Shown: positions 1-24,545, counted from the stretch's first letter. The stretch is DNA of 32,416 bases from Asterionella formosa (GCA_002256025.1 NKIB01000458.1:1-32416), one strand, 5' to 3'. Translations and numbers: made by a program. The notes: generated by a model not told the origin, from the sequence alone.

Positions 1-778
1 TCATTGCAAGAGCGGTTGCAGTAACTTCAGCGTTTCCTACCAGTTCCTCTACTGCACCAAAGTTACCTTGCGTAGACCAAAATCCAAAGTTAAGTGGAAG
101 ATTCATTGCGGAGCAGATGATATCTGCATCTGTTGGTCCCATTCTGGCTTTGTGACAACCCAAAATAAACTGTTTGTTGATAAAAAAGAGTTTTGCTAAT
201 ATTGCGTTATTTCTTATCTCATCATTTCTGTCTCCATTGCTGTTGCTTCTTGCAGGTTCGAGTTTAGAAATCAGTTTCTGACAGTTCAAACAAGAGACTT
301 TGAATTCGCTTGCCAAGCCGTAATTTTTGGTAGATACAACAATCAACGGTTGTTTCATTGTTGAAATCGGAAAGTCAAACACATCCTGCTCCAGAAATGA
401 TTCACATTGCTGTTCAATGGACTGCTTTTGTTGTCTATTTGATGTAAAGAAAGTTACAAAGTCACGAAGTGATTGTTTGCAATATTCTTTACAAATTTAT
501 TCACACAACCTTTGCAATACATATCTTCCTGCAGAAATTTCGAAAAATGTATTATAGTCGATTATATGATTCATGTTCAGTTGAGAGCAGTCTGTTTTAA
601 TTGGTGATGATGTGATTGCTAGTTCAATTGGTGAAGTGGTTGTTGTAGGGGGGAGGGGACAAAAAGGGATCTTAGAGGTCCACCAATTTTGATTTTCATT
701 GGACGCTACTATATTTCGTCCTCCTTGACCACCAACACCAATTTCGGAAATGAGACGGTTACCACTGGAATGTGGCAT
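1..778 (-). pseudogene. Kolobok/Mutator-like (PF20700-type) DDE transposase, N-terminal part, interrupted by one in-frame stop
   Basis: ATG at 778 and TAA at 499-497; the same frame then stays open to the window edge: ...KNYGLASEFKVSCLNCQK...FFINKQFILGCHKARMGPTDADIICSAMNLP... This resembles the GLASxxxxxCxxC and INxxxxxxxxxxGxGxxxxxxxCxxMN(L/M)P motifs. An alternative frame across about 545-495 gives KFLQEDMYCKGC (CxxC), implying compensating 1-nt indels in T and A runs. Confidence 0.6.
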
Positions 779-959
779 GATTTTGTCTTATAATAGTTGG
801 TGTTGCTGTTTTTAATGGCTGGTTGATTCGTTAGATTGTGTAAAAATAAAATTTATTTGAAATTCATGCCACCTCACTTCTAGAAGGTTTTGAAACATCG
901 TACGTAGGTGGATTGAGGTTCTTGATTTACTAATGAAATAAATGAAAATCGTAAAAACA

Positions 960-1457
960 CTAATCACTAATAGATTTAGAACATTTAGAACGTTTGGAAG
1001 TTGGTTTGAAATCAGTGTACACTTCGTTTGGGTCCTTGTTCTTCAAAAGAGATCGAACCCCCTTCAAACAACAGTCAGGAAGTTGCATCCGAACACCTTT
1101 TCCCAATGGACCACTGAAAACTCTGATTAGAAACTTGTACAGAAGATTGCGGGCTCTTGATGCCGTAATGTCTTCATCCTTCAACCTGGTAAGAATGGAT
1201 TCACCTTCCAGAAACTTCTCCACCAACTCTTCGACTTCATCCCATTGGCACTGACATTCAGGGCAGCAAAAATCGCAGCATTCGCAGAAGATATGATCCT
1301 CACATCCCTCCACATACAACTCTACAATCAACCGGTCTTGGCAGGTAGGACAACTATCATGACTGTCGTTAAATTCGTCATTACCGTTGTCATCAATTTG
1401 ATGTGTAATTTCGCTCATGGTTGATTGTTGCTTTTTTTGTTTCTTACCGGTAGTCAT
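960..1457 (-). CDS. KolX / P2X7 C-terminal 'ballast' (nanor-like) Cys-rich protein
   Basis: Cys cluster CPTC..C..H..CECCDFCCPECQC followed by RNLLYKFLIRVFSGPLGKGVRMQLPDCCLKGVRSLL...EVYTDFK, matching the RxxxYR...GxLGKGxRxxxPxCxxxxIR...YTGF signature. First ATG is at 1457; the ORF track opens at GTG 1493. Confidence 0.7.
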   Translation of the reverse strand: MTTGKKQKKQQSTMSEITHQIDDNGNDEFNDSHDSCPTCQDRLIVELYVEGCEDHIFCECCDFCCPECQCQWDEVEELVEKFLEGESILTRLKDEDITASRARNLLYKFLIRVFSGPLGKGVRMQLPDCCLKGVRSLLKNKDPNEVYTDFKPTSKRSKCSKSISD

Positions 1458-1951
1458 CAACAATATTTGCCATGCTGCCAGCTCGTCTGACACATATATG
1501 TTGATTGTATGATAGGGTATTTAAACATTGAGCGATTCAGAATGTGTATGTATATATTTATTTAATTCGAAAAGGAATCTATGTATGTACGCGCAAATTT
1601 CCAGTGATTTCAATATTTCAAATGGAATCACGTCATTCAAAATAAACTCATAAAAATTCTTAGTTCCAGGGAATTTCGGCAACCCTAAGCAATATTTTTA
1701 TTTTTGCGTATGGGTTCAAATGCAGGAACCTTAACATACAGCATGATGTATAAGAAATATGTAACCATGCATGATAGCTACAGTACCAGGTTACAGTGCA
1801 TTTTGTGAAACATGAGCGATGGTTCCTGTAGTACTACCGGTGCTCGTTCTCATTTGATCACAATCCAATTACAGCCCACTCACTTGTAGTACAATTGGTA
1901 TCTCCCCTCTCGTTGCATTTCCTTGCCTCTCACTAATAGTGTGCCTGCAAA

Positions 1952-4669
1952 ATGCCCCGAATCATCGTCGGCTCTAGAAAGAGGTTTGGAACGGCAGATA
2001 ACAAGGAATATACGCGTGTCAAACCCAAAGGTTCCTCATGGGCTGACTATGACGCTGGCTTGACCCAGGAGGCTCCAACAATTCAAGAAAGCATTTTAAA
2101 GCTTCATCCTACTTCTCTTTCAGGATCGATTTGCAACAAGCTTATTTCATCGCGTGGACGAAAGAAATCACGAAGAACAACATTTTCATCGAATGACTGC
2201 GATGTTCCGCTGCCACAGTACACCACATTGAAACAACCTCCTTGTGCTGATGCCGCTGCGAGACTAACAGATGTTGTGAAAGTCTCTGAAAGCACCTCTG
2301 AAACGCGAAATAAACTCCAAAAACAAGCAGCTGTTTCCATCACGCTTGACATGATTACACCGCTGCAATTCATTGGAGGGAAGCACTGTCCCATTACAAT
2401 TGACGATGTCAGAGTGCAGAGTACTAGCCTTCAGGTTAGCGAGGCAATAGCAAACACCAAAATGACGCAGAATCAGATGTCAAATTTAGACTTATCTAGA
2501 AAACGGATTGACTTTGAGTCAATAAATGTATGTCGTAGCGAGTCAAATGAGAAAACATGCTCGTCCAAAGCCAAGGAGTTAACTCCTTCCTCAACGATTA
2601 CACCTGGAGACCGAGTCTTTGATGTATCTGACGTAGCGACAGAGTCTCAAAACGAGTGGAAAATATGGAGACGGATGAGCATGTCTATCTCACCATCGCG
2701 TCACAAGGAAATGATAGAGTCTCATGAGGAGTGGCCAGTCAATCAAGCAAATTCCAGATCATCTGCTGTCAAACTCACCTTTGAAAATTGCATCCATCTC
2801 AATATTGAGAAGGACTTGTACTTAACTGAAACCGCGGTAGCTCCAGTGCCCATCTTGGTGAATTCCATGTCATTGCAAGGCTTGAGTTCAGGAAAATACA
2901 AACGCCAAGGAGTCATGGAAAATAACATTCGATGGAGGCAAGTTGGTCCAAAAGCATTTTGTCTGGAGCATGAAGTGTTGAGAGAGTATGATAATACAGA
3001 TGATATGTTTACTACTACGACTGCAGGTCGGGACTTGCGGTGGGAAGCTCATGTACTGAAACGAATTCACAAATTTTCGATTTGCCCGTGCATTCCAAAC
3101 CCGATTCATCTTTGTGTGTCTGCAAAAGACAAGGCTTTGTGTCTACAGATGGAATGTGATTTTACGCTTGATATATTTGGCACACTGGAGGAATTTCTAT
3201 GTTCACATTCTCAATACAATAATGGTGGAGTTCCTGAGTTAGTGACTGCATGGTTGACTGTTCAAATCATGTCGGTATTGAATGATGTGCACAGCAGTGG
3301 GGTGTCACATAACAATCTTTCTTTACAATCGTTTTTGTTGGTGCGAATAAGCAATGGAGATAACTGGTGTTTAGTTGTCACTGGCTTTGGTGCCAACGCT
3401 TCGATGAACGACGATGAGAAGGAGGGTGATTGGTGCTTTGCTCGTGATTTGTACAGTGTTGCCAGCATGATATGGACTCTTCTCACTGGACTACCGTTCT
3501 CATGCAATAAGAGGGGCAGAAAGGTGGAGCTTGACCACAAAGAATTTATCACCTCAAATCGTTTCCTGCGCGGTGCGCTGGGTTGGGAAGACCTCTTTCT
3601 GACTTTGCTGAATCCTCTCCGGGTTCACCACGGCTTTCACTCCATCGATGACTGGCATGACTTGTCACACTCTCTTGACATGCTAAATGCAATGGTACCA
3701 TCTTCTAACAAGGACACACCTGCATTCATAGCAGCCTTCTTTGATACTCTCATGAGTCACAAGAAAGGCAGTATTGATCGCTTGACAAGGGACCATGTCC
3801 AAACGGAGGAGAACATAAACAAGATTGAAATGGCTAAATTGAAAGAGCTTGTCACTGAATACCAAGCAAAATGCCTTCTTGTCGAGCAAGAAAAAGTTCT
3901 CATGCGGGAAAAAATGGAACACAACCACTTCCAGTCATTCCCATTGTTTGAAGAAAAACACAAGGACAATATGAGATGTGTAAATGATGACGCGGAAAAA
4001 GCGCAATGCGAATTTGTAGAGTGGCAGAAAAAAACTGCGCTGCTTCGAAATAAAGTACTGAACCTGCAAGAACAGCTTGAAATTGAAATGAACAAGTTGA
4101 AGGCAAGCAACAAAGACAACGAAGACCTAAAATTACGGCTTCATAGTGTGATGGACGAGCTGCAGCAATCAAGGAAAAAGTGTGAGTCGGAAACCAGTCT
4201 GGACCTGCAGCTGAAGGTCCTGAAGGGCAAACTTGTTGAAAGTGAGCAAGACCAGGAGAAGCTACTCTCTCAAGTCAGCGATTTGAAGCAAGAAGTGCAA
4301 CGTTGGCGCAGCGCTGCGGACAAAATCAGATGCAAGGCATTAGAGCTTCAACAGAAAGGATTACAACTCAACAGGGTGCAAACTTCTCTCGGTCAATCAC
4401 TATCGAAACACTCTGTCTATCGCAAATCTCCAAAAAAGTTTCCTTCTCGAAACAAAAACGTTAATGAGTTCTCACTGGTGGCAACGATTGAAAAAATGCC
4501 AACCAAGCCTCCCTGTGACTTGCAACAGAGAGCCGATCCAACGACACCTGGCAATCTGTTGTTGAATTCTGGAAGGGCAACAAAGGATTGGAAAGTAATT
4601 CGACACAATGGCGACACTCAAATTGTTGTAGCAGAAGATCCATACTCATTGAATTCCGACTCTGAATAA
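1952..4669 (+). CDS. 905-aa protein: low-complexity N-terminus, degenerate Bub1/BubR1-like (pseudo)kinase domain (about 2920-3620), C-terminal coiled coil (about 3810-4380)
   Basis: Long uninterrupted ORF. Bub1-like segments WEAHVLKRI, GTLEEFL, GVPELVTAWLTVQIMSVLNDVHSSGVSHNNL, LVVTGFG, WCFARDLYSVASMIWTLLTG and WEDLFLTLLN. The tail is E/K/Q/L-rich with heptad periodicity. Confidence 0.75.
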   Translation: MPRIIVGSRKRFGTADNKEYTRVKPKGSSWADYDAGLTQEAPTIQESILKLHPTSLSGSICNKLISSRGRKKSRRTTFSSNDCDVPLPQYTTLKQPPCADAAARLTDVVKVSESTSETRNKLQKQAAVSITLDMITPLQFIGGKHCPITIDDVRVQSTSLQVSEAIANTKMTQNQMSNLDLSRKRIDFESINVCRSESNEKTCSSKAKELTPSSTITPGDRVFDVSDVATESQNEWKIWRRMSMSISPSRHKEMIESHEEWPVNQANSRSSAVKLTFENCIHLNIEKDLYLTETAVAPVPILVNSMSLQGLSSGKYKRQGVMENNIRWRQVGPKAFCLEHEVLREYDNTDDMFTTTTAGRDLRWEAHVLKRIHKFSICPCIPNPIHLCVSAKDKALCLQMECDFTLDIFGTLEEFLCSHSQYNNGGVPELVTAWLTVQIMSVLNDVHSSGVSHNNLSLQSFLLVRISNGDNWCLVVTGFGANASMNDDEKEGDWCFARDLYSVASMIWTLLTGLPFSCNKRGRKVELDHKEFITSNRFLRGALGWEDLFLTLLNPLRVHHGFHSIDDWHDLSHSLDMLNAMVPSSNKDTPAFIAAFFDTLMSHKKGSIDRLTRDHVQTEENINKIEMAKLKELVTEYQAKCLLVEQEKVLMREKMEHNHFQSFPLFEEKHKDNMRCVNDDAEKAQCEFVEWQKKTALLRNKVLNLQEQLEIEMNKLKASNKDNEDLKLRLHSVMDELQQSRKKCESETSLDLQLKVLKGKLVESEQDQEKLLSQVSDLKQEVQRWRSAADKIRCKALELQQKGLQLNRVQTSLGQSLSKHSVYRKSPKKFPSRNKNVNEFSLVATIEKMPTKPPCDLQQRADPTTPGNLLLNSGRATKDWKVIRHNGDTQIVVAEDPYSLNSDSE

Positions 4670-5660: not shown

Positions 5661-6059
5661 TTACACATCAATTTTTGCCTTCTTCTTGACTTGAGATCCA
5701 ACTTCATTCTTCATTTTCTGATTTTTGTGACGAAAAGGTGCATGCTCGGTCGCAATCGCAAGTTCATCGACCACTATTTCGCCATTTGCCTTCTCACGCA
5801 GATGGGCCAAAATGAGGGTCTTATGCAAATCTGGCATGGATCTCGTCAATGTTTGAATCGTTCTCCAGTTCAGACTCTCGCCTGTACCAATAACATGAAC
5901 GCAAAAGTCCGAATGCACGCGGTCAGGAACATCAGCGTACAAGACGAGTTCACACCCAAATTGAAGTCCTGAATGGACTCTATAGCCCTTGGCTTCGAAG
6001 TGGCGTCGGACGATCATATTTCTTTGTTCCTTCGATACATATTCATGAAGCGATGCCAT
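5661..6059 (-). CDS. tRNA-splicing endonuclease catalytic subunit (Sen2/Sen34-like), catalytic domain only
   Basis: RRHFEAKGYRVHSGLQFGCELVLYADVPDRVHSDFCV...LNWRTIQTLTRSMPDLHKTLIL matches the tRNA_int_endo domain, with Tyr/His/Lys triad candidates (VLY, VHS, HKT) and a basic NLS-like tail KKKAK. An upstream exon cannot be excluded. Confidence 0.8.
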   Translation of the reverse strand: MASLHEYVSKEQRNMIVRRHFEAKGYRVHSGLQFGCELVLYADVPDRVHSDFCVHVIGTGESLNWRTIQTLTRSMPDLHKTLILAHLREKANGEIVVDELAIATEHAPFRHKNQKMKNEVGSQVKKKAKIDV

Positions 6060-6218
6060 AGTGGCGAAAGGGGAGATCGCTCTACGAGTTTAAAACCGAA
6101 AGATACGCCTGATATACCTGATGTGTATTCCTCATCTTCATTTTTGTTTTTCGAAGGTTGGTCCGACGACAACCCAATGCATCCGCTCGTGGCGGGGCGA
6201 AAAGTTCCAATGCAACTA

Positions 6219-6335
6219 CCGGTATGTATTGGTACCAGGTACCTGGTACCAGGTACAAGGTAAACCATACAGGTAATGGTAACCTACCTGGTAACATCGT
6301 GACCTGGTAACCTGGTACCAGTGGTACCAGGTACA
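6219..6335. repeat. GGTACC/GGTAAC-rich degenerate tandem cluster
   Basis: Repeated units such as ggtaccaggtacctggtaccaggtacaaggta...cctggtaacctggtaccagtggtaccaggtac. Similar clusters occur at about 13245-13310, 13888-13940, 14020-14036, 19733-19836 and 31818-31972. Confidence 0.75.
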
Positions 6336-6931
6336 GAAACCGAGCATATGTTCACGTCTATGTAACTCATTAAAAACGCATATTTTCGAGTAAGCCGACC
6401 CTCACGTAGAAATTTTGTATGTTGGCTACATAATCCTTCATATCCAAACAGTAAAGACACTGGTGGTGCCAGCGAATCGATGCAACTGTTACTAGACAGA
6501 GGGAGTACTAGGTAACTGCAAGTTGCGGTCACCATCTTTCGGAAACTGACAACGTGACGCCTGACAGGCGCTTTTAATGATATTGAGCGTGCTTTGATAT
6601 GCAGTTATCATAATAAAAAATTGGGCGCGCTCTGATAATAAAAAATTTTTATATATCAAGTGTATTATAACACAAATCGTTGTACCCATAACCCCAAAAT
6701 TTGTGTTTGTGTTGACCAACTTCTTTACAGTTATACATAACAGTGCATTATATAAAAAGATGTTTAGACATGAATGACTATATAGAATTTCCCGGAATAT
6801 TTCAAGACTTGCTTGCTCATACTCAAAATGGCTTGCTCTTGCCAAAATAGGTATGCATATACATATGCATATCGTTACATATCAATCAACCTACTCAATA
6901 AATCGATTGTCATCGCTTTTAGATTTCGGCC

Positions 6932-7561
6932 ATGTCTTCATCCTCTTCTGGTCAAAGGAGAGCAGCCACCAGGGAGGGCTTCCCTTCCTCTCCAAGGCTG
7001 CTTGAACGTCGCCGTCACCAGCAACAAGAACAACAACAGACTCAACCAGAAGAAGAGGAGGAGGACGACGACAAGCATGAAGATGACACTGGTGCTGATG
7101 AGTTTGCCAGCAACGATGAGGACAATAGGATAGGTGTCCCAGGTTTTTCTCAGATTGGTGTTTCTTGGGTTACTCAGTCCCCATCAAGGAACAACAACGA
7201 TTTTTCACGTGCTCCTACTAGTTCAGTTTCAAGAACAGCAACTGCCAGGTGAGCACCAATGTTTCCAAGAGCTCGCTGAAGCATGCAGAGTTGGGATCAA
7301 CAGTTCAGGATCAATGAGATTCTCTCATTGCTGGAAGCCATTTCTACTCACCTGCCAATTGGGTCCCATGAATGGGAAGTTGTTGCATCACAGCACAACG
7401 AGAATTTCCCAGACAAAGAACGGACAGGACCTTCACTTCGCCGAAAGTTTTCACAGCTGCACAAAGTTAAGAAACCAACTGGGGACCCAACATGCCCTGC
7501 TGAGGTGAGATATGCCAATTTTTTTTCGAAGAATCGAGCAACAACCAGATGCAAGTGCTGA
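6932..7561 (+). pseudogene. Harbinger accessory Myb/SANT-like (DUF6818-like) DNA-binding protein, disrupted
   Basis: ORFs 6932-7252 and 7283-7561 are in the same frame, separated by TGA at 7250-7252 and 7277-7279. The domain FRINEILSLLEAISTHLPIGSHEWEVVASQHNENFPDKERTGPSLRRKFSQLHKVKKPTGDPTCPAEVRYA has the LPxGxxEW...LRRKF..L....PTGDP.CP..VR.A signature. Confidence 0.8.
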
Positions 7562-13093: not shown

Positions 13094-13465
13094 GTTTCAA
13101 TTCACGGTTCGGCGGCTTGAACGTGTCAGTGGTGGTCTAGAGAGTTGACTGTAAAGTTAATATTGGGGACTTCAAAACTTAATCAATAACGAACGCAGAT
13201 TTTACGACCACTATGAATTATAATTCAATTATTTCGATTGACTATACCGTACCTGGTTACGGTACCAGGGTACGGTATGTAAACTGTACCGCTCACACCT
13301 GGTACCGATATGACTACATACCTCGGAACATGCATAAAATGGGTTTCTTTCTTCCTCTTGTCCATTTTTTACTGGTTCGTGTGCTCATCAGTCTGTCCAT
13401 AGCCACTCTTAGGTATCCCACCTTATGATATGCTCCACGCAGATGAGGTACCTGGTCCCATGGTA

Positions 13466-14865
13466 CCAGCAAGTTGCGGTCATTTTGCCGAAAATGGAAC
13501 GCGGCGCCGGCAAGCACTCATATTCGACTCCCCGCTAATATTACTTAAGCATTTAGAAAACTCTAACGGTTTCGCGCTGGCCAATAAATTTCATTATTAT
13601 CAAAATCTAATTTTAAAGAATAATTTTCTGAAGAAACCAGTTTCCGAACCTTGCTACCGGTACGATTGGGGGGTTTTGGATTGGGAGGTTTTCCCCCCAA
13701 TCACAATTTTGAGTTTCAAGACTCCTTATTCCAGAAATCTCCTAGTTTATATGCATTTCTATTTCGGTATAAGTCGTTGTGGTAAATATCGGTATGCATC
13801 ATACATAGGAGAACGACGTAGTACATCCATCTTGCATCCCTGTGTATGCATACCGGTATCAAATACCGATTCATAATGGAACCAGACTACCAGGTACCAG
13901 GTACCGGTACCGGTACCGGTGCCAGGGACCACCCTGGTACAATTGACTTCATGTCAGTTTATGGTTGTTAGTAAATAGCTACAAGCATGTATGTTCTTGG
14001 AACATGATGTTTGCCGGTTTGGTACCGGTACCGGTAACATCATGACAATGATGATACGCCTATTGTAAACAGATAAATCCCAAATTATAAACCAATTGTT
14101 GTTTTCAGCTTCTGATATTATAGAATATGTCTACTTGATGTACAACGGTTATGTACGAACTACTCGGGTTTTGATCCGGCAAGAAATCATGGAGATATTG
14201 TTGTTGCGGTCGAACGCCATGTTGCTTCCACCGATTTTCTATTTTAGCTATTTCGCAATGAATATCAAAGCTACGTGTTCGTTTCTTTCACTACTTGCTA
14301 GCGACACGTGTATTCTATCTAAGAAACTAATAATAATAGCGTTAAGCAGTTGTGTACAAAATCGAAAATTAATAATCAATTAATCATGGTAATGGGAAAT
14401 TTCTCATGTTCGTTCGATTCATGAGCGATTGTATAATTCTTATACCCGGTATGTACCAGTATGCAGAGAGCATACATATTATCCATATAACCGTATGTGC
14501 ATGTCCCGCTACCGGTATACCGGTATGTATTCCCGGACGTCTGCACTCCTTGGCGGGGGTCGACTTTCATGTTCTTTGATCTCTTGCCTTTGCCCGCATC
14601 TGACCCCGACGGAATCTAGCCCTCCGGTAAAACCCCCCAATTTCTTTTGGATTGGGGGTTTTTCGATTGGGGGAATGAGTTTGACCGTAATTTAGTTCCT
14701 GCCAAATCAAATTCTAGCATAATAGTATTCAAAACGATCATGCCACGAATGAAACATAACCGTTTTCCGAGCTAGCCAGATTCTATGTTTTAGTATTGGA
14801 TCTACAGGCGTGAATATCCGAGATGTCCAAATCGTCATTTCGGCAATTTTACCGCAACTTGCAGG
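13466..14865. mobile_element. 1.4-kb non-autonomous TIR element flanked by TA
   Basis: Left TA|CCAGCAAGTTGCGGTCATTTTGCCGAAA (13466-13493); right TTTCGGCAATTTTACCGCAACTTGCAGG|TA (14838-14865). This is a 28-bp inverted repeat with 4 mismatches. No recognisable internal ORF. Confidence 0.7.
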
Positions 14866-16290
14866 TACCGGTAGTTGCCTTTTCAGTTTTGCCAGACACT
14901 TCGATATTTACGTAGGTGAGATATCAACAGGCTACATAAAATGAATTCTACACGCGAGTGTACCACAGGACAGAATCCAGAATCCGATCGTATGCCATAC
15001 TTGATGTCGAAATAGGGCACCAAACAATTATAAAATATACAATGCATGTATGAAATCGTGCATGGATTTGTACGGTTCACCTGACATACATAGTACACTC
15101 AGCCAATGCACCACGTAACTAGCATTTGGGTCTGCTGAGAGTTCAACTCAATGAAACAATTCAATTTTCTGTCGAATATGTTGTTTTGAGCATAATGAAA
15201 GTCTTGCCTAGAAATAGGGGCGTACGAATGGGCTATAAAACATACTATCCTTTTTGATTTTTAGGATAATTTCACCGTCATGAAGAAGTTTATTAATTCA
15301 TGAATTTGAAATCGAGATTCGGTGTTGGTCCACAGACAGCCAGTTCAACTCGCGAAATGTAATACAATTTTAGTTGCATCCACTTTTTAAAACGAAAACC
15401 AACATAGCTGGTACTGAGTTGTTAAATATATAATCATAACAAAGGATATTAGCACATGTGTAGAGTGAAAATATATTTGGGTTTGCTCACAGATTCATTA
15501 AAAATCAAATTCTAATTGAGTGGAGTTCGAAGAAGGGAAGGTTGGAACGATAAGCTGTCAAACATTTAACATGGTTCTGCTGATCTGATTATAGCCAAGT
15601 TCTGTGCGCAGGATGGAGGGAAGGGAAAGATTTGAGAGAAAAAAATAATATAGCAGTAGCAAATCAAAAAAATAAACGAAGAAACAATAATTTTATAATA
15701 TTATCAAACATGCTTTACTACTTAACTCGCTTAGCTTGTACGTTTCAACCTGCATCAACTATTCAATGACTTCCTGCAAGGCCTACCAAGCGCAATAAGA
15801 ATTCTCCAAGAGGATGATTAATGTGGACAGCCACCAAGTCTTCCAGCAACGAAATGATGGAAAAATGACGCCATGGTGTGTAAGTGTGTTTATCGTGAAG
15901 CACCATGTCTCAAATTATTTCAAACACGCTTGAGCTCACGAAAATTTATCCGTTTACACAACACAGGATTCCATAAGTTAATTTAGCCTTTGATAGCATA
16001 CAATCGTCCGGGAGGACGTCGTGAGTAGAGCAATGACAGCTTGCCTTCGATAATGGATTGAACAACCGTGACAGTGGCAATGATCATGGGAAGGAAGAAA
16101 ATGATAGTTTGCTTGTTTTTATGAAAGGAACCATTAAATATCTAGCAGTATGGTCCATGTTAATGTAGAAACTATAGAAGTTGCATGGAAAGAATGTTAT
16201 TCTGTTCAAGTTTTAATTATGATATTGATATTTTTTCGGTTTCCCGTAAATATTTGAGCATGCAGCCGCTGTAAAGCAGCATGGGGCAGT

Positions 16291-18788: not shown

Positions 18789-18937
18789 GGTGAGAGTTCC
18801 TTTGGTATCCTCGATCAACTTCCTGCCTCGGCACGGTCAACCAGAGAGTCTTGGGATGAGCGATGTGTTTCCAGTCAAAGCAATACATGGCATAAATTTG
18901 TACAATGCTAGACGAATATAGTGTATGATAAAGAGTA

Positions 18938-19735
18938 CCGTAAAACCTGGTGTCTCGTATCCCCCCTGATACCTGTACCCCCTTTCGTACATCTGGCACA
19001 ACACCCCCAAATATTTTATGTCTACAGAAAAAATAACAGCATATTATTGTATTCTAGCTATTTATTAATGCATTTACTATAATTGTATTCTTACCGGTCA
19101 CCATGAAACAACAATCAACAACAACACGAGCGATGCCAATGACATTTGCGATGGCGATATCCTTGTCCTGAGATCTATTTCAAAAGTCGAAGCTGCAACT
19201 TGCATGCTTGTTGTGGAGCGATTATCAAGATGAATGCTAAAGGCTCAGGCAGTTCTGGCCTTGATGTTGTCGGCTTGCCGGAAGTGTTAACAGAATCATT
19301 TCGTCTGCTGCCTCATGATGCAGAAATATTTCGTGAATGTCATGATTCTGGTCGAACAATCATATAAGTGATGTGGTTGGCTTACATTAATTTCCATCAC
19401 GATCCAAGTCGTAGAGTCTACACAAGTTAATACCGTTGTAGGATTAGGTACAAATGGGTACAGACACCTGGAATTACTTTTGATGCCATAACAAAACTCG
19501 GGCGCACCGGTGCACCAAAAATAGAAATTCTATTGATCATAGAAACTGTTTGAACCTACAACAACATATCTTTTAATATTGCTATTTACGTTTTAGACTA
19601 CGGAGAAAACGGTGGTGAAGTTGGTTTGCTCGTAGTGTTGGATTATCAAAAAAGGTCCGATGTCTTGTACTCCCCTCTAAGTAAAATCAGTCGTGGCTGT
19701 GTACATTGAGGGGTACGAGACACCAGGTTTTACTG
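18938..19735. mobile_element. 798-bp non-autonomous Tc1/mariner (pogo-like) element or MITE
   Basis: TA|CCGTAAAACCTGGTGTCTCGTATCCCC ... GGGGTACGAGACACCAGGTTTTACTG|TA: TIRs of about 26 bp, with TA duplication at 18936-18937 and 19736-19737. Confidence 0.85.
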
Positions 19736-20088
19736 TACCAGGTACCAGTACATAGGGGCCTCATCTAAACAATGTTTTGGTACATGTTCCCTGGTATCGC
19801 TAAGATCCGTATGGTACCAGGTTCCAGGTGCCTGGTAGTTTCTTCATTCATTCTGGTCGTATATACCTATATATCCGGTAACACCTATGTACCTACATAA
19901 AATACTGGTGTATTTATTTTTGGATCTTTCTTGCGAACCAAAAAACTGTTGAGCAATAATCATGGTGGTCACAATCGTCGACAAAAGGAATTGAAAATCA
20001 AAAAGAAAAGTTCTGCACCGATGAGGGAAGGAGAAAGCAGGGTTTGAACATTTTTCTGGTAGTGTGCGATATTATCTTCCATCTTTCA

Positions 20089-23882: not shown

Positions 23883-24033
23883 GCTAGTACTGCGTGGGGA
23901 TGTAATGCGTCTGCTTCCGTTTGAGTACTGGGTACCGGTTGATCCAGTGACTGACTTGGAGCAAGGAGGCCGCAGGAAGAAAGCAATGTTAGCAAGAATG
24001 CAAAGGAGAATCAAAAATGAGGAATACAATATA

Positions 24034-24545
24034 GGGCGCGCTCTGATTATAAAAAACTATTACATATGACGTGTATTGTAACTAACACAAATCGTTATTA
24101 CCAATAACCAAAGGGGTGGTCAACACAAACACAAATTTTTACAGTTATAAATAACAGTGCATCATTAAAGAAGTTGTACAGGCATTAATGACTAATATCA
24201 GTGCATTATTTAAGAAGATGTATAGGCATTATGACTACATGGAATTTCCCAGAATATTTCAAGACTTGCTTGCTCATACTCAAAATGGCTTGCTCTTGCC
24301 AAAATAGGTATGCATACACACATGCATATCATTACATATCAATCAACCTCCTCAATACACTGATCCATTGTTGCTTTTAGATACATTTCAATAATGTCTT
24401 CATCTTCTTCCGGTCAAAGGAGACCAGCCAGGGAGGGCTTCCCTTCCTCTCGAAGGCTGCTTGAATGTTGCTCTCACCAACAAGAACAACAACGGATTCA
24501 CCCAGAAGAAGACAAGGAGGAGGATGAAAATGAAGATGCACACTG
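24034..24545 (+). mobile_element. Truncated second copy of the Harbinger left end (TIR through start of the Myb-like ORF)
   Basis: GGGCGCGCTCTGATTATAAAAA followed by near-identity to 6623 to about 7090 (e.g. aatatttcaagacttgcttgctcatactcaaaatggcttgctcttgccaaaataggtatgcatac; atgtcttcatc...agggagggcttcccttcctctc). Confidence 0.9.

Follow-up and report, generated by a model that had tools for sequence, protein, structure and literature searches.

The window examined here is the whole 32,416-nucleotide stretch of Asterionella formosa DNA (NKIB01000458.1), and its first 1,734 bases almost certainly belong to a Kolobok cut-and-paste DNA transposon about 3.9 kb long, of which they make up the left 45%. 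The window starts at base 1 of its contig (C458 of G000, the organism's own genome), where the element is therefore truncated. What remains of it holds, on the minus strand, an accessory ORF (960-1457) and, downstream, the 5' third of a transposase gene (1-778, codons 1-256 of 791, with the ATG at 778), separated by an AT-rich spacer of 181 bp (779-959); the contig end precedes the catalytic core of the transposase. Outside the accessory ORF lies a 5' subterminal region (1458-1707, minus strand) that is conserved in all aligned copies and presumed to act as the promoter of the accessory gene. It is followed by a 23-bp left terminal inverted repeat (TIR; 1708-1730, minus strand), which starts with GG, departs from the common form at two of its 23 bases and pairs with a repeat at the right end in full-length copies. 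The TTAA at 1731-1734 is the target site, here the left copy of the target-site duplication; the homology of other copies ends at this point, and GG comes next on the minus strand. The ORF with its quoted motifs, the transposase start, the TTAA and the GGTTC/GAACC pair were all where the initial annotation had placed them, but what it called a hairpin is no separate feature: it is a 5-bp palindrome, GGTTC-N8-GAACC (GGTTC at 1713-1717, GAACC at 1726-1730), inside the TIR.

A Kolobok element with TTAA targets and RR..YY ends, and with homology between copies stopping at 1734, had been proposed, and other copies in the own genome bear this out. In a DNA search with window 900-1900, most of the end-reaching matches stop at query 835 (window 1734) and no match extends past query 847 (window 1746), among the best 40 of 695 candidates. 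The flanks outside 1734 are unrelated between copies, with TTAA at 16 of the 19 junctions listed, and TTAA directly precedes 30 of 37 distinct termini among own-genome loci. The partner terminus that was expected to the left would lie beyond the contig end here and was seen in other full-length copies. Both ends were found in eight copies (L060, L063-L067, L069 and L074) from 20 stretches fetched around copies; these span 2.4-4.1 kb, the undeleted ones 3.86-4.08 kb, and their right ends are the inverted form of the left end, giving termini of GG..CC. Exact TTAA flanks both sides in five of the eight (L060, L063, L065, L066 and L074). The genomic copies were counted through a 24-base terminal pattern, which occurs with at most one mismatch at 326 places in the own genome (reversed control, 0), a figure drawn from a partly redundant assembly and including many termini that will belong to deleted derivatives. 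At L003 and L088, the end of the element meets another Kolobok-like end over one common TTAA (CC-TTAA-GG), an insertion into the neighbor's target site.

The 1-778 stretch had been taken as a transposase frame, and its start at 778 and its match to PF20700 (Pfam 'Mutator', E 6.6e-6) agree with this, but it is not one open frame. Alignment with 14 other copies reveals one inserted base near 547, after which the ATG frame runs into a stop at 497-499; a missing base near 491 then restores the frame. The window copy, 94-97% identical to its nearest copies, is a dead member of the youngest wave and is non-autonomous. Its transposase part is 85% identical to P0152, an intact 791-aa transposase on a 3,848-base contig that is 95% identical to copy L076 and matches PF20700 with E 3.8e-43; this profile matches 116 places in the own genome. 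In an alignment with 55 long relatives, P0152 shows D308, D403-405, the DxxH signature D455-P-S-H458 and E582, all 96-100% conserved, and thus a DDD/E core with C/DxxH between the second Asp and the Glu, a region that lies beyond the contig end in the window copy. A CCHC finger (C347, C350, H363, C365; 96-100% conserved) follows the first Asp, a second zinc finger (H517, H522, C525, C530; 100%) sits between DxxH and the last Glu, and a C-terminal knuckle is conserved in the same 55 relatives. The signatures found in P0152 are those of Kolobok in the available portions of Kojima and Bao 2022 (PMC9587614).

The Pfam label might instead suggest a Mutator/MuDR element, and piggyBac also uses TTAA and can carry this accessory gene, but we find either assignment barely credible. 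MuDR elements have long TIRs and non-specific duplications of about 9 bp, in place of the 23-bp TIRs and 4-bp TTAA duplication seen here. For P0152 the only match was to PF20700, with none to the piggyBac domain DDE_Tnp_1_7, and the ends read GG..CC rather than YY..RR. Compared by eye, the transposase also has motifs in common with published Kolobok transposases (those seen of PMC9587614 Data S5). A PDB sequence search with the transposase gave no match, and no relative of the transposase or of the accessory gene appeared among viral contigs. The prokaryote-genome search yielded one decayed transposase relative (L101, 30% identity) on a contig that is probably eukaryotic; no KolX-like gene lies within 4 kb of L101, which is the one outside transposase relative with context.

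The host had been described as having a diatom-type genome. Seven silicon transporter matches in the own genome (best E 1e-171), along with diatom-named relatives (the Attheya transposase P0163 and the Thalassionema protein P0147), support this. According to the parts of PMC9587614 at hand, diatoms (Fragilariopsis cylindrus) are among the hosts of Kolobok, and the kinship of KolX with P2X7 is already in print. The closest published counterpart that we noticed there is Kolobok-1_FraCyl (Kolobok_1_FraCyl_2p in Data S5), which likewise comes from a diatom, has a CCHC finger after the first Asp and, by eye, has lineage-specific motifs before DxxH in common with P0152. The '2p' in its name hints that the Repbase entry includes a second protein, in which case the tandem accessory gene could already have been annotated. 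This is a known kind of element, and possibly one already in Repbase under that name.

By every feature tested the family is Kolobok, including the 4-bp TTAA target-site duplication, the 5'-RR...YY-3' termini with TIRs (GG..CC, 23 bp) and the second zinc finger; by two features it falls outside Kol0, and its KolX-like gene is of a short, non-animal type. Kol0 (type Kolobok-1_XT), the lineage to which KolX is assigned, has in common with it the TTAA duplication, the RR..YY ends and a second gene with the C-terminal half of the ballast (P0001 compared with L094). In the portions of PMC9587614 available, however, Kol0 is listed from animals, and the CCHC finger is listed for KolobokP, E, D, Kolobok5 and solitary families and not for Kol0, whereas the transposase of the window family has this finger. 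The KolX gene of Kol0 also has a CxCxxC..CC..C zinc motif and is convergent to the transposase (L094, L100), in contrast to the upstream, same-strand gene of the window family, whose cysteine spacing is different; the seven-cysteine zinc motif of the ballast is absent from it, judged against the animal KolX proteins L094 and L096.

The accessory ORF (P0001) encodes 165 aa from its first ATG, with a TAG at 960-962; the second ATG, at 1418, is the probable start and gives 152 aa. It had 150 scored genomic matches among 318 candidates, while a search of the ESM Atlas at 0.9 returned no match for P0001 or P0126. The tandem order of the two genes, as first proposed, was found in 58 of the 59 own-genome loci that have both, many of these being repeats of a single copy; the exception comes from an artefactual 3-base overlap at a deletion. 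The upstream position is retained in a subfamily as far removed as 45-56% transposase identity. The accessory gene of the window copy had also been called intact. Its frame is open, but it carries a private G149D (1011-1013) within a near-invariant motif: among 36 distinct genomic segments, position 149 is G in 33, V in two and D in the window copy alone, and it is Gly in 54 of 56 distant relatives. Thus 'intact' is true of the frame but probably not of the function. Residues R103, Y107, G116, G119, R123, C129 and G149 are near-invariant in the 56 distant relatives, and the most invariant residues are basic residues and glycines on the side of the GDP pocket discussed below.

We considered whether the ORF might be no more than a decayed passenger, or a piece of captured host sequence, without a role in transposition. 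The decay of the window copy would fit, as would a dN/dS of 0.82 for the accessory core within the young wave (370 pairs). Between subfamilies, however, the ORF has been under purifying selection, with dN/dS of about 0.3. Among 41 distinct copies, compared in non-independent pairs, the two middle divergence bins gave 0.33 (117 pairs) and 0.31 (252 pairs), and the most divergent bin, of 31 pairs with frameshifted copies included, gave 0.47. The upstream place kept over such transposase divergence also speaks against a passenger, as do relatives seen only inside transposons, and we consider this explanation very improbable. Some subfamilies have a mosaic look. L044 has a dS of 0.45 for the accessory gene and 1.05 for the transposase, and L070 has 0.54 and 0.30 (L044/L078 and L070 compared with L001/L007), which suggests a swap of gene modules between subfamilies.

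A dense cysteine cluster, noted at the outset as unusual, occupies residues 36-70 (1248-1352, minus strand) with the pattern CxxC ... CxxC-xxx-CxxCxC, as seen in column counts and a cysteine census. With C129 it makes eight conserved cysteines, which probably bind two zinc ions. Three grades can be told apart. In most distant relatives the pattern is CxxC-xxxx-C, and the LPxC cysteine brings the total to four (presumably one zinc). The window family shares CxxC...CxxC-xxx-CxxCxC with about six distant relatives, which together with LPxC makes eight (presumably two). Animal KolX has CxCxxC..CC..C. The dense cluster is thus real and partly conserved, yet other than the seven-cysteine ballast motif. 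In an AlphaFold model of the accessory protein, pLDDT is above 90 for residues 71-150 and 47-61 over the cluster.

The proposed kinship with KolX and the P2X7 ballast holds for the C-terminal, GDP-pocket half only, where transitive profile comparison shows homology and structure gives a weak match. The direct profile match that had been expected is absent: Pfam P2RX7_C (PF20478) did not match P0001 or the L078 and L041 ORFs at E<=10, or P0002 at E<=0.05, and a genome-wide PF20478 search gave no candidates, its control being silent too. A profile built from 20 close relatives led to 98 representatives, and P2RX7_C matched 48 of the 58 distant ones scanned against Pfam (E<=0.5), 21 of them above the curated cut-off and almost all at profile positions of about 130-192. 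The profile of P0001 with 67 relatives matches P2X7 residues 537-592 in the PDB (E 3.8e-5); this profile contains distant relatives, so the link to P2X7 is transitive. The close and distant relative sets (A2 and A4) align with 99.6% probability in hhalign. P0001 is 36% identical over 50 aa to the animal KolX L094 (pairwise E 1e-8), which itself matches PF20478 with E 1.9e-16. In VIA-align, with model residues 57-154 on chain residues 473-595, rat P2X7 (6u9v_A) ranked first of 48,161 chains at a weak Z of 5.9 (rmsd 4.4, 93 residues) that lies below the tool's reliability line; a subunit of complex I tied with it (5.5). Foldseek gave no match in PDB or BFVD at E<=0.001. Matches to NEMO/COP1 zinc fingers in the single-sequence and close-family PDB searches were rejected as noise.

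The homologous part comprises residues 103-151 (1005-1151, minus strand), equivalent to human P2X7 546-592, with R103=R546, Y107=Y550, G116=G559, P127=P570, C129=C572, R135=R578, Y147=Y588 and F150=F591. The features kept are R103, Y107, a Gly/basic loop at 116-123, P127, C129, R135 and Y147. In contrast to the P2X7 ballast (PF20478; PDB 6u9v, 9e3m), the accessory protein is free-standing, aligns just the C572 equivalent of the seven cysteines, does not keep the WRF and FP motifs and has a basic Gly loop where P2X7 has an acidic loop. Two of the five GDP-contact residues (R546, H547, R574, R578 and K583) are kept, as R103 and R135; the equivalents of H547, R574 and K583 are N, L and N. These five were named by Rump et al. 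2020, and in the accessible parts of PMC7016195 two of the five are kept in invertebrate members as well, and the ballast domain is called a metazoan invention.

The same short module is found in other transposons. Eleven loci came out of a metagenome scan that used ten distant relatives as queries: four of the short form and seven of animal-type KolX. Of the short-form loci, L091 and L093 are complete piggyBacs, with DDE_Tnp_1_7, TTAA-flanked inverted ends and a convergent accessory gene inside the ends, while the contigs of L090 and L092 are short and show a convergent C-terminal fragment that resembles those of the other two. L093 also has subterminal palindromic repeats within its TTAA ends and a Ulp1-type peptidase gene upstream of the transposase. 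In three of the four piggyBac-type loci (L090:244-1053, L092:1-660, L093:127-6883), the KolX-like module has a Rep-A_N (RPA70N-like OB) domain fused at its N-terminus. A convergent transposase is visible in the animal-type loci L094 and L100, and wherever context could be seen, the module lies within a TTAA-type DNA transposon: piggyBac in L091 and L093, Kolobok in L094 and L100. The consulted parts of PMC9587614 note KolX C-terminal-like proteins in a few piggyBacs and list two non-animal cases. Those of piggyBac-2_GrCh and piggyBac-14_PI (Data S6), compared by eye, are of the short C-terminal form as well, with CxxC-xxxx-C-x-W, a helix, R..xY, GxLGKGxR, LPxC and YxGF in common with the present proteins; they differ in that the carrier here is a Kolobok and the window subfamily has eight cysteines instead of four. 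The presence of one module in both Kolobok and piggyBac points to accessory-gene exchange between TTAA-targeting transposons.

Overall, the best explanation is probably a two-gene Kolobok, multiplied in waves in a diatom-type genome, with an accessory gene that helps. An intact transposase from another copy would bind the TIRs, excise the element and insert it into TTAA using D308/D403/E582, and the window copy could at most be mobilized in trans. The accessory protein may be a small zinc-stabilized transposition helper, whose conserved face (R103, Y107, the GxLGKGxR loop, R123, R135 and YxGF) would contact a phosphate-bearing ligand while acting with the transposase. This ligand would most likely be DNA of the transposon ends or the TTAA target, or a guanine nucleotide. 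We put forward this helper role tentatively, at a little less than even chances. It is not an essential one, since PMC9587614, as far as that source was available, describes many families of Kolobok and piggyBac that transpose in the absence of KolX. Also counting against the helper reading are the lack of a KolX-like gene near the transposase relative L101, the missing direct P2RX7_C match, the weak structural ranking and the replacement of three of the five GDP contacts.

A more specific proposal is that the protein is a guanine-nucleotide cofactor, supplying in trans what the P-element transposase has as an inserted GTP-binding domain. The P2X7 ballast binds GDP/GTP in the very half conserved here (PMC7016195, in part), the equivalents of R546 and R578 are kept, the C/DxxH signature is common to P and Kolobok (PMC9587614, in part), and positioning of the ends by P transposase depends on GTP (PMC7776569, in part). 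The three other GDP contacts, however, are replaced. The same module rides in piggyBacs, which are not known to need GTP. P is also called unique in its use of GTP in the available parts of PMC7776569, and we regard the cofactor proposal as unlikely.

RNA evidence bears on another alternative. Contigs from four metatranscriptome runs were set on the full-length copy L064; of the 12 runs available, the others had small shares and were left out. Runs X2 and X4, from one study, have GT..AG joints opposite to the gene strand; the splice sites are canonical, and most copies have them. Both runs also have a deep RNA contig with a poly(A) end over the catalytic core of the transposase (depth 1604 in X2 and 1217 in X4). 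The antisense RNA lies at L064:4526-5391 and 5957-6440 (plus strand). It is spliced and non-coding, and is either driven by the element or read through from a host gene. The antisense exon has no conserved frame, and the long 'ORFs' that run antisense to the transposase were dismissed as shadows. In the window, two antisense introns used by other copies would fall at about 89-255 and 448-534 (within 89-535, plus strand), and both donors are mutated in the window copy. No sense-strand intron was found among the 15 joints listed of 46. RNA contigs cover the accessory region in all four runs, given with neither strand nor level, and these may be DNA. One contig of run X4 skips 3,572 bases (L064:3995-7568), corresponding to a short, internally deleted, MITE-like derivative.

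The abundant antisense RNA suggests RNA-level control of the family, and the accessory protein might then act on expression or chromatin, as a zinc-binding factor that attaches to the element and regulates it or counteracts its silencing, or as a recruiter of host repair proteins. VANC of the VANDAL elements is an analogue for an element-binding anti-silencing factor. The protein is small, Cys-rich, basic and separately encoded, and the fusion to Rep-A_N in piggyBac-type loci is consistent with recruitment, for which RPA70N-like domains are known. DNA-binding BEN domains appear in the structural ranking with weak scores (Z 4.6 and 4.0), but these are within background, and none of 58 relatives has a Pfam match to the BEN, CXC or VANC families. 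Such a regulatory role is somewhat unlikely in our estimation.

If the helper reading is extended across families, the short ballast-half module could be an ancient, swappable cofactor common to unrelated TTAA-targeting Kolobok and piggyBac elements of stramenopiles. It would bind a guanine nucleotide or terminal/TTAA DNA in trans, like the GTP domain of the P element in cis, with a zinc cap that re-evolved (four, seven or eight cysteines) and an RPA70N-like recruiter gained in piggyBacs. We rate this as speculative and improbable; if true, it would give KolX a function and the P2X7 GDP pocket a pre-animal origin.

The window copy itself is ordinary genomic debris, and the family is of modest importance. 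Its members are intron-poor, two-gene Kolobok elements that were active recently, and because intact products of 791 aa and 152 aa are on record, the question of KolX's role is testable with them. The family shows a KolX-like gene outside Kol0 that differs in its position and its zinc cap, and places the GDP-pocket half-fold of P2X7 well outside animals. The less described aspects are the tandem gene order, the non-Kol0 transposase, the short module in complete TTAA piggyBacs and the spliced antisense RNA. In literature searches whose coverage excluded Repbase Reports and subscription journals, we found nothing beyond PMC9587614 on Kolobok/KolX, the P2X7 ballast in transposons or diatom Kolobok transposases, and no mention of a Rep-A_N fusion of the KolX-like module; searches on piggyBac accessory or Ulp1 genes and on spliced antisense transposase RNA in diatoms gave nothing on point.

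Several neighboring features were also noted. A host gene at window 1952-4669 (plus strand) begins 218 bases from the element end, divergent from the element, and encodes a 900-aa protein with a degenerate kinase-like region and a coiled coil; it has a weak BUB1 kinase match (E 0.15) and no Pfam match. Probable mobile elements lie at 13462-14869, with 32-nt inverted ends (13462/14838), and at 18935-19738, with 29-nt inverted ends (18935/19710). A block duplicated at 83-93% identity 17.4 kb apart (6612-7074 and 24023-24530), with a perfect 23-nt inverted piece, is probably another. A retrotransposon polymerase, which we take to be Copia-type from its motifs, sits beside a diverged Kolobok copy (L077:1237-2967).
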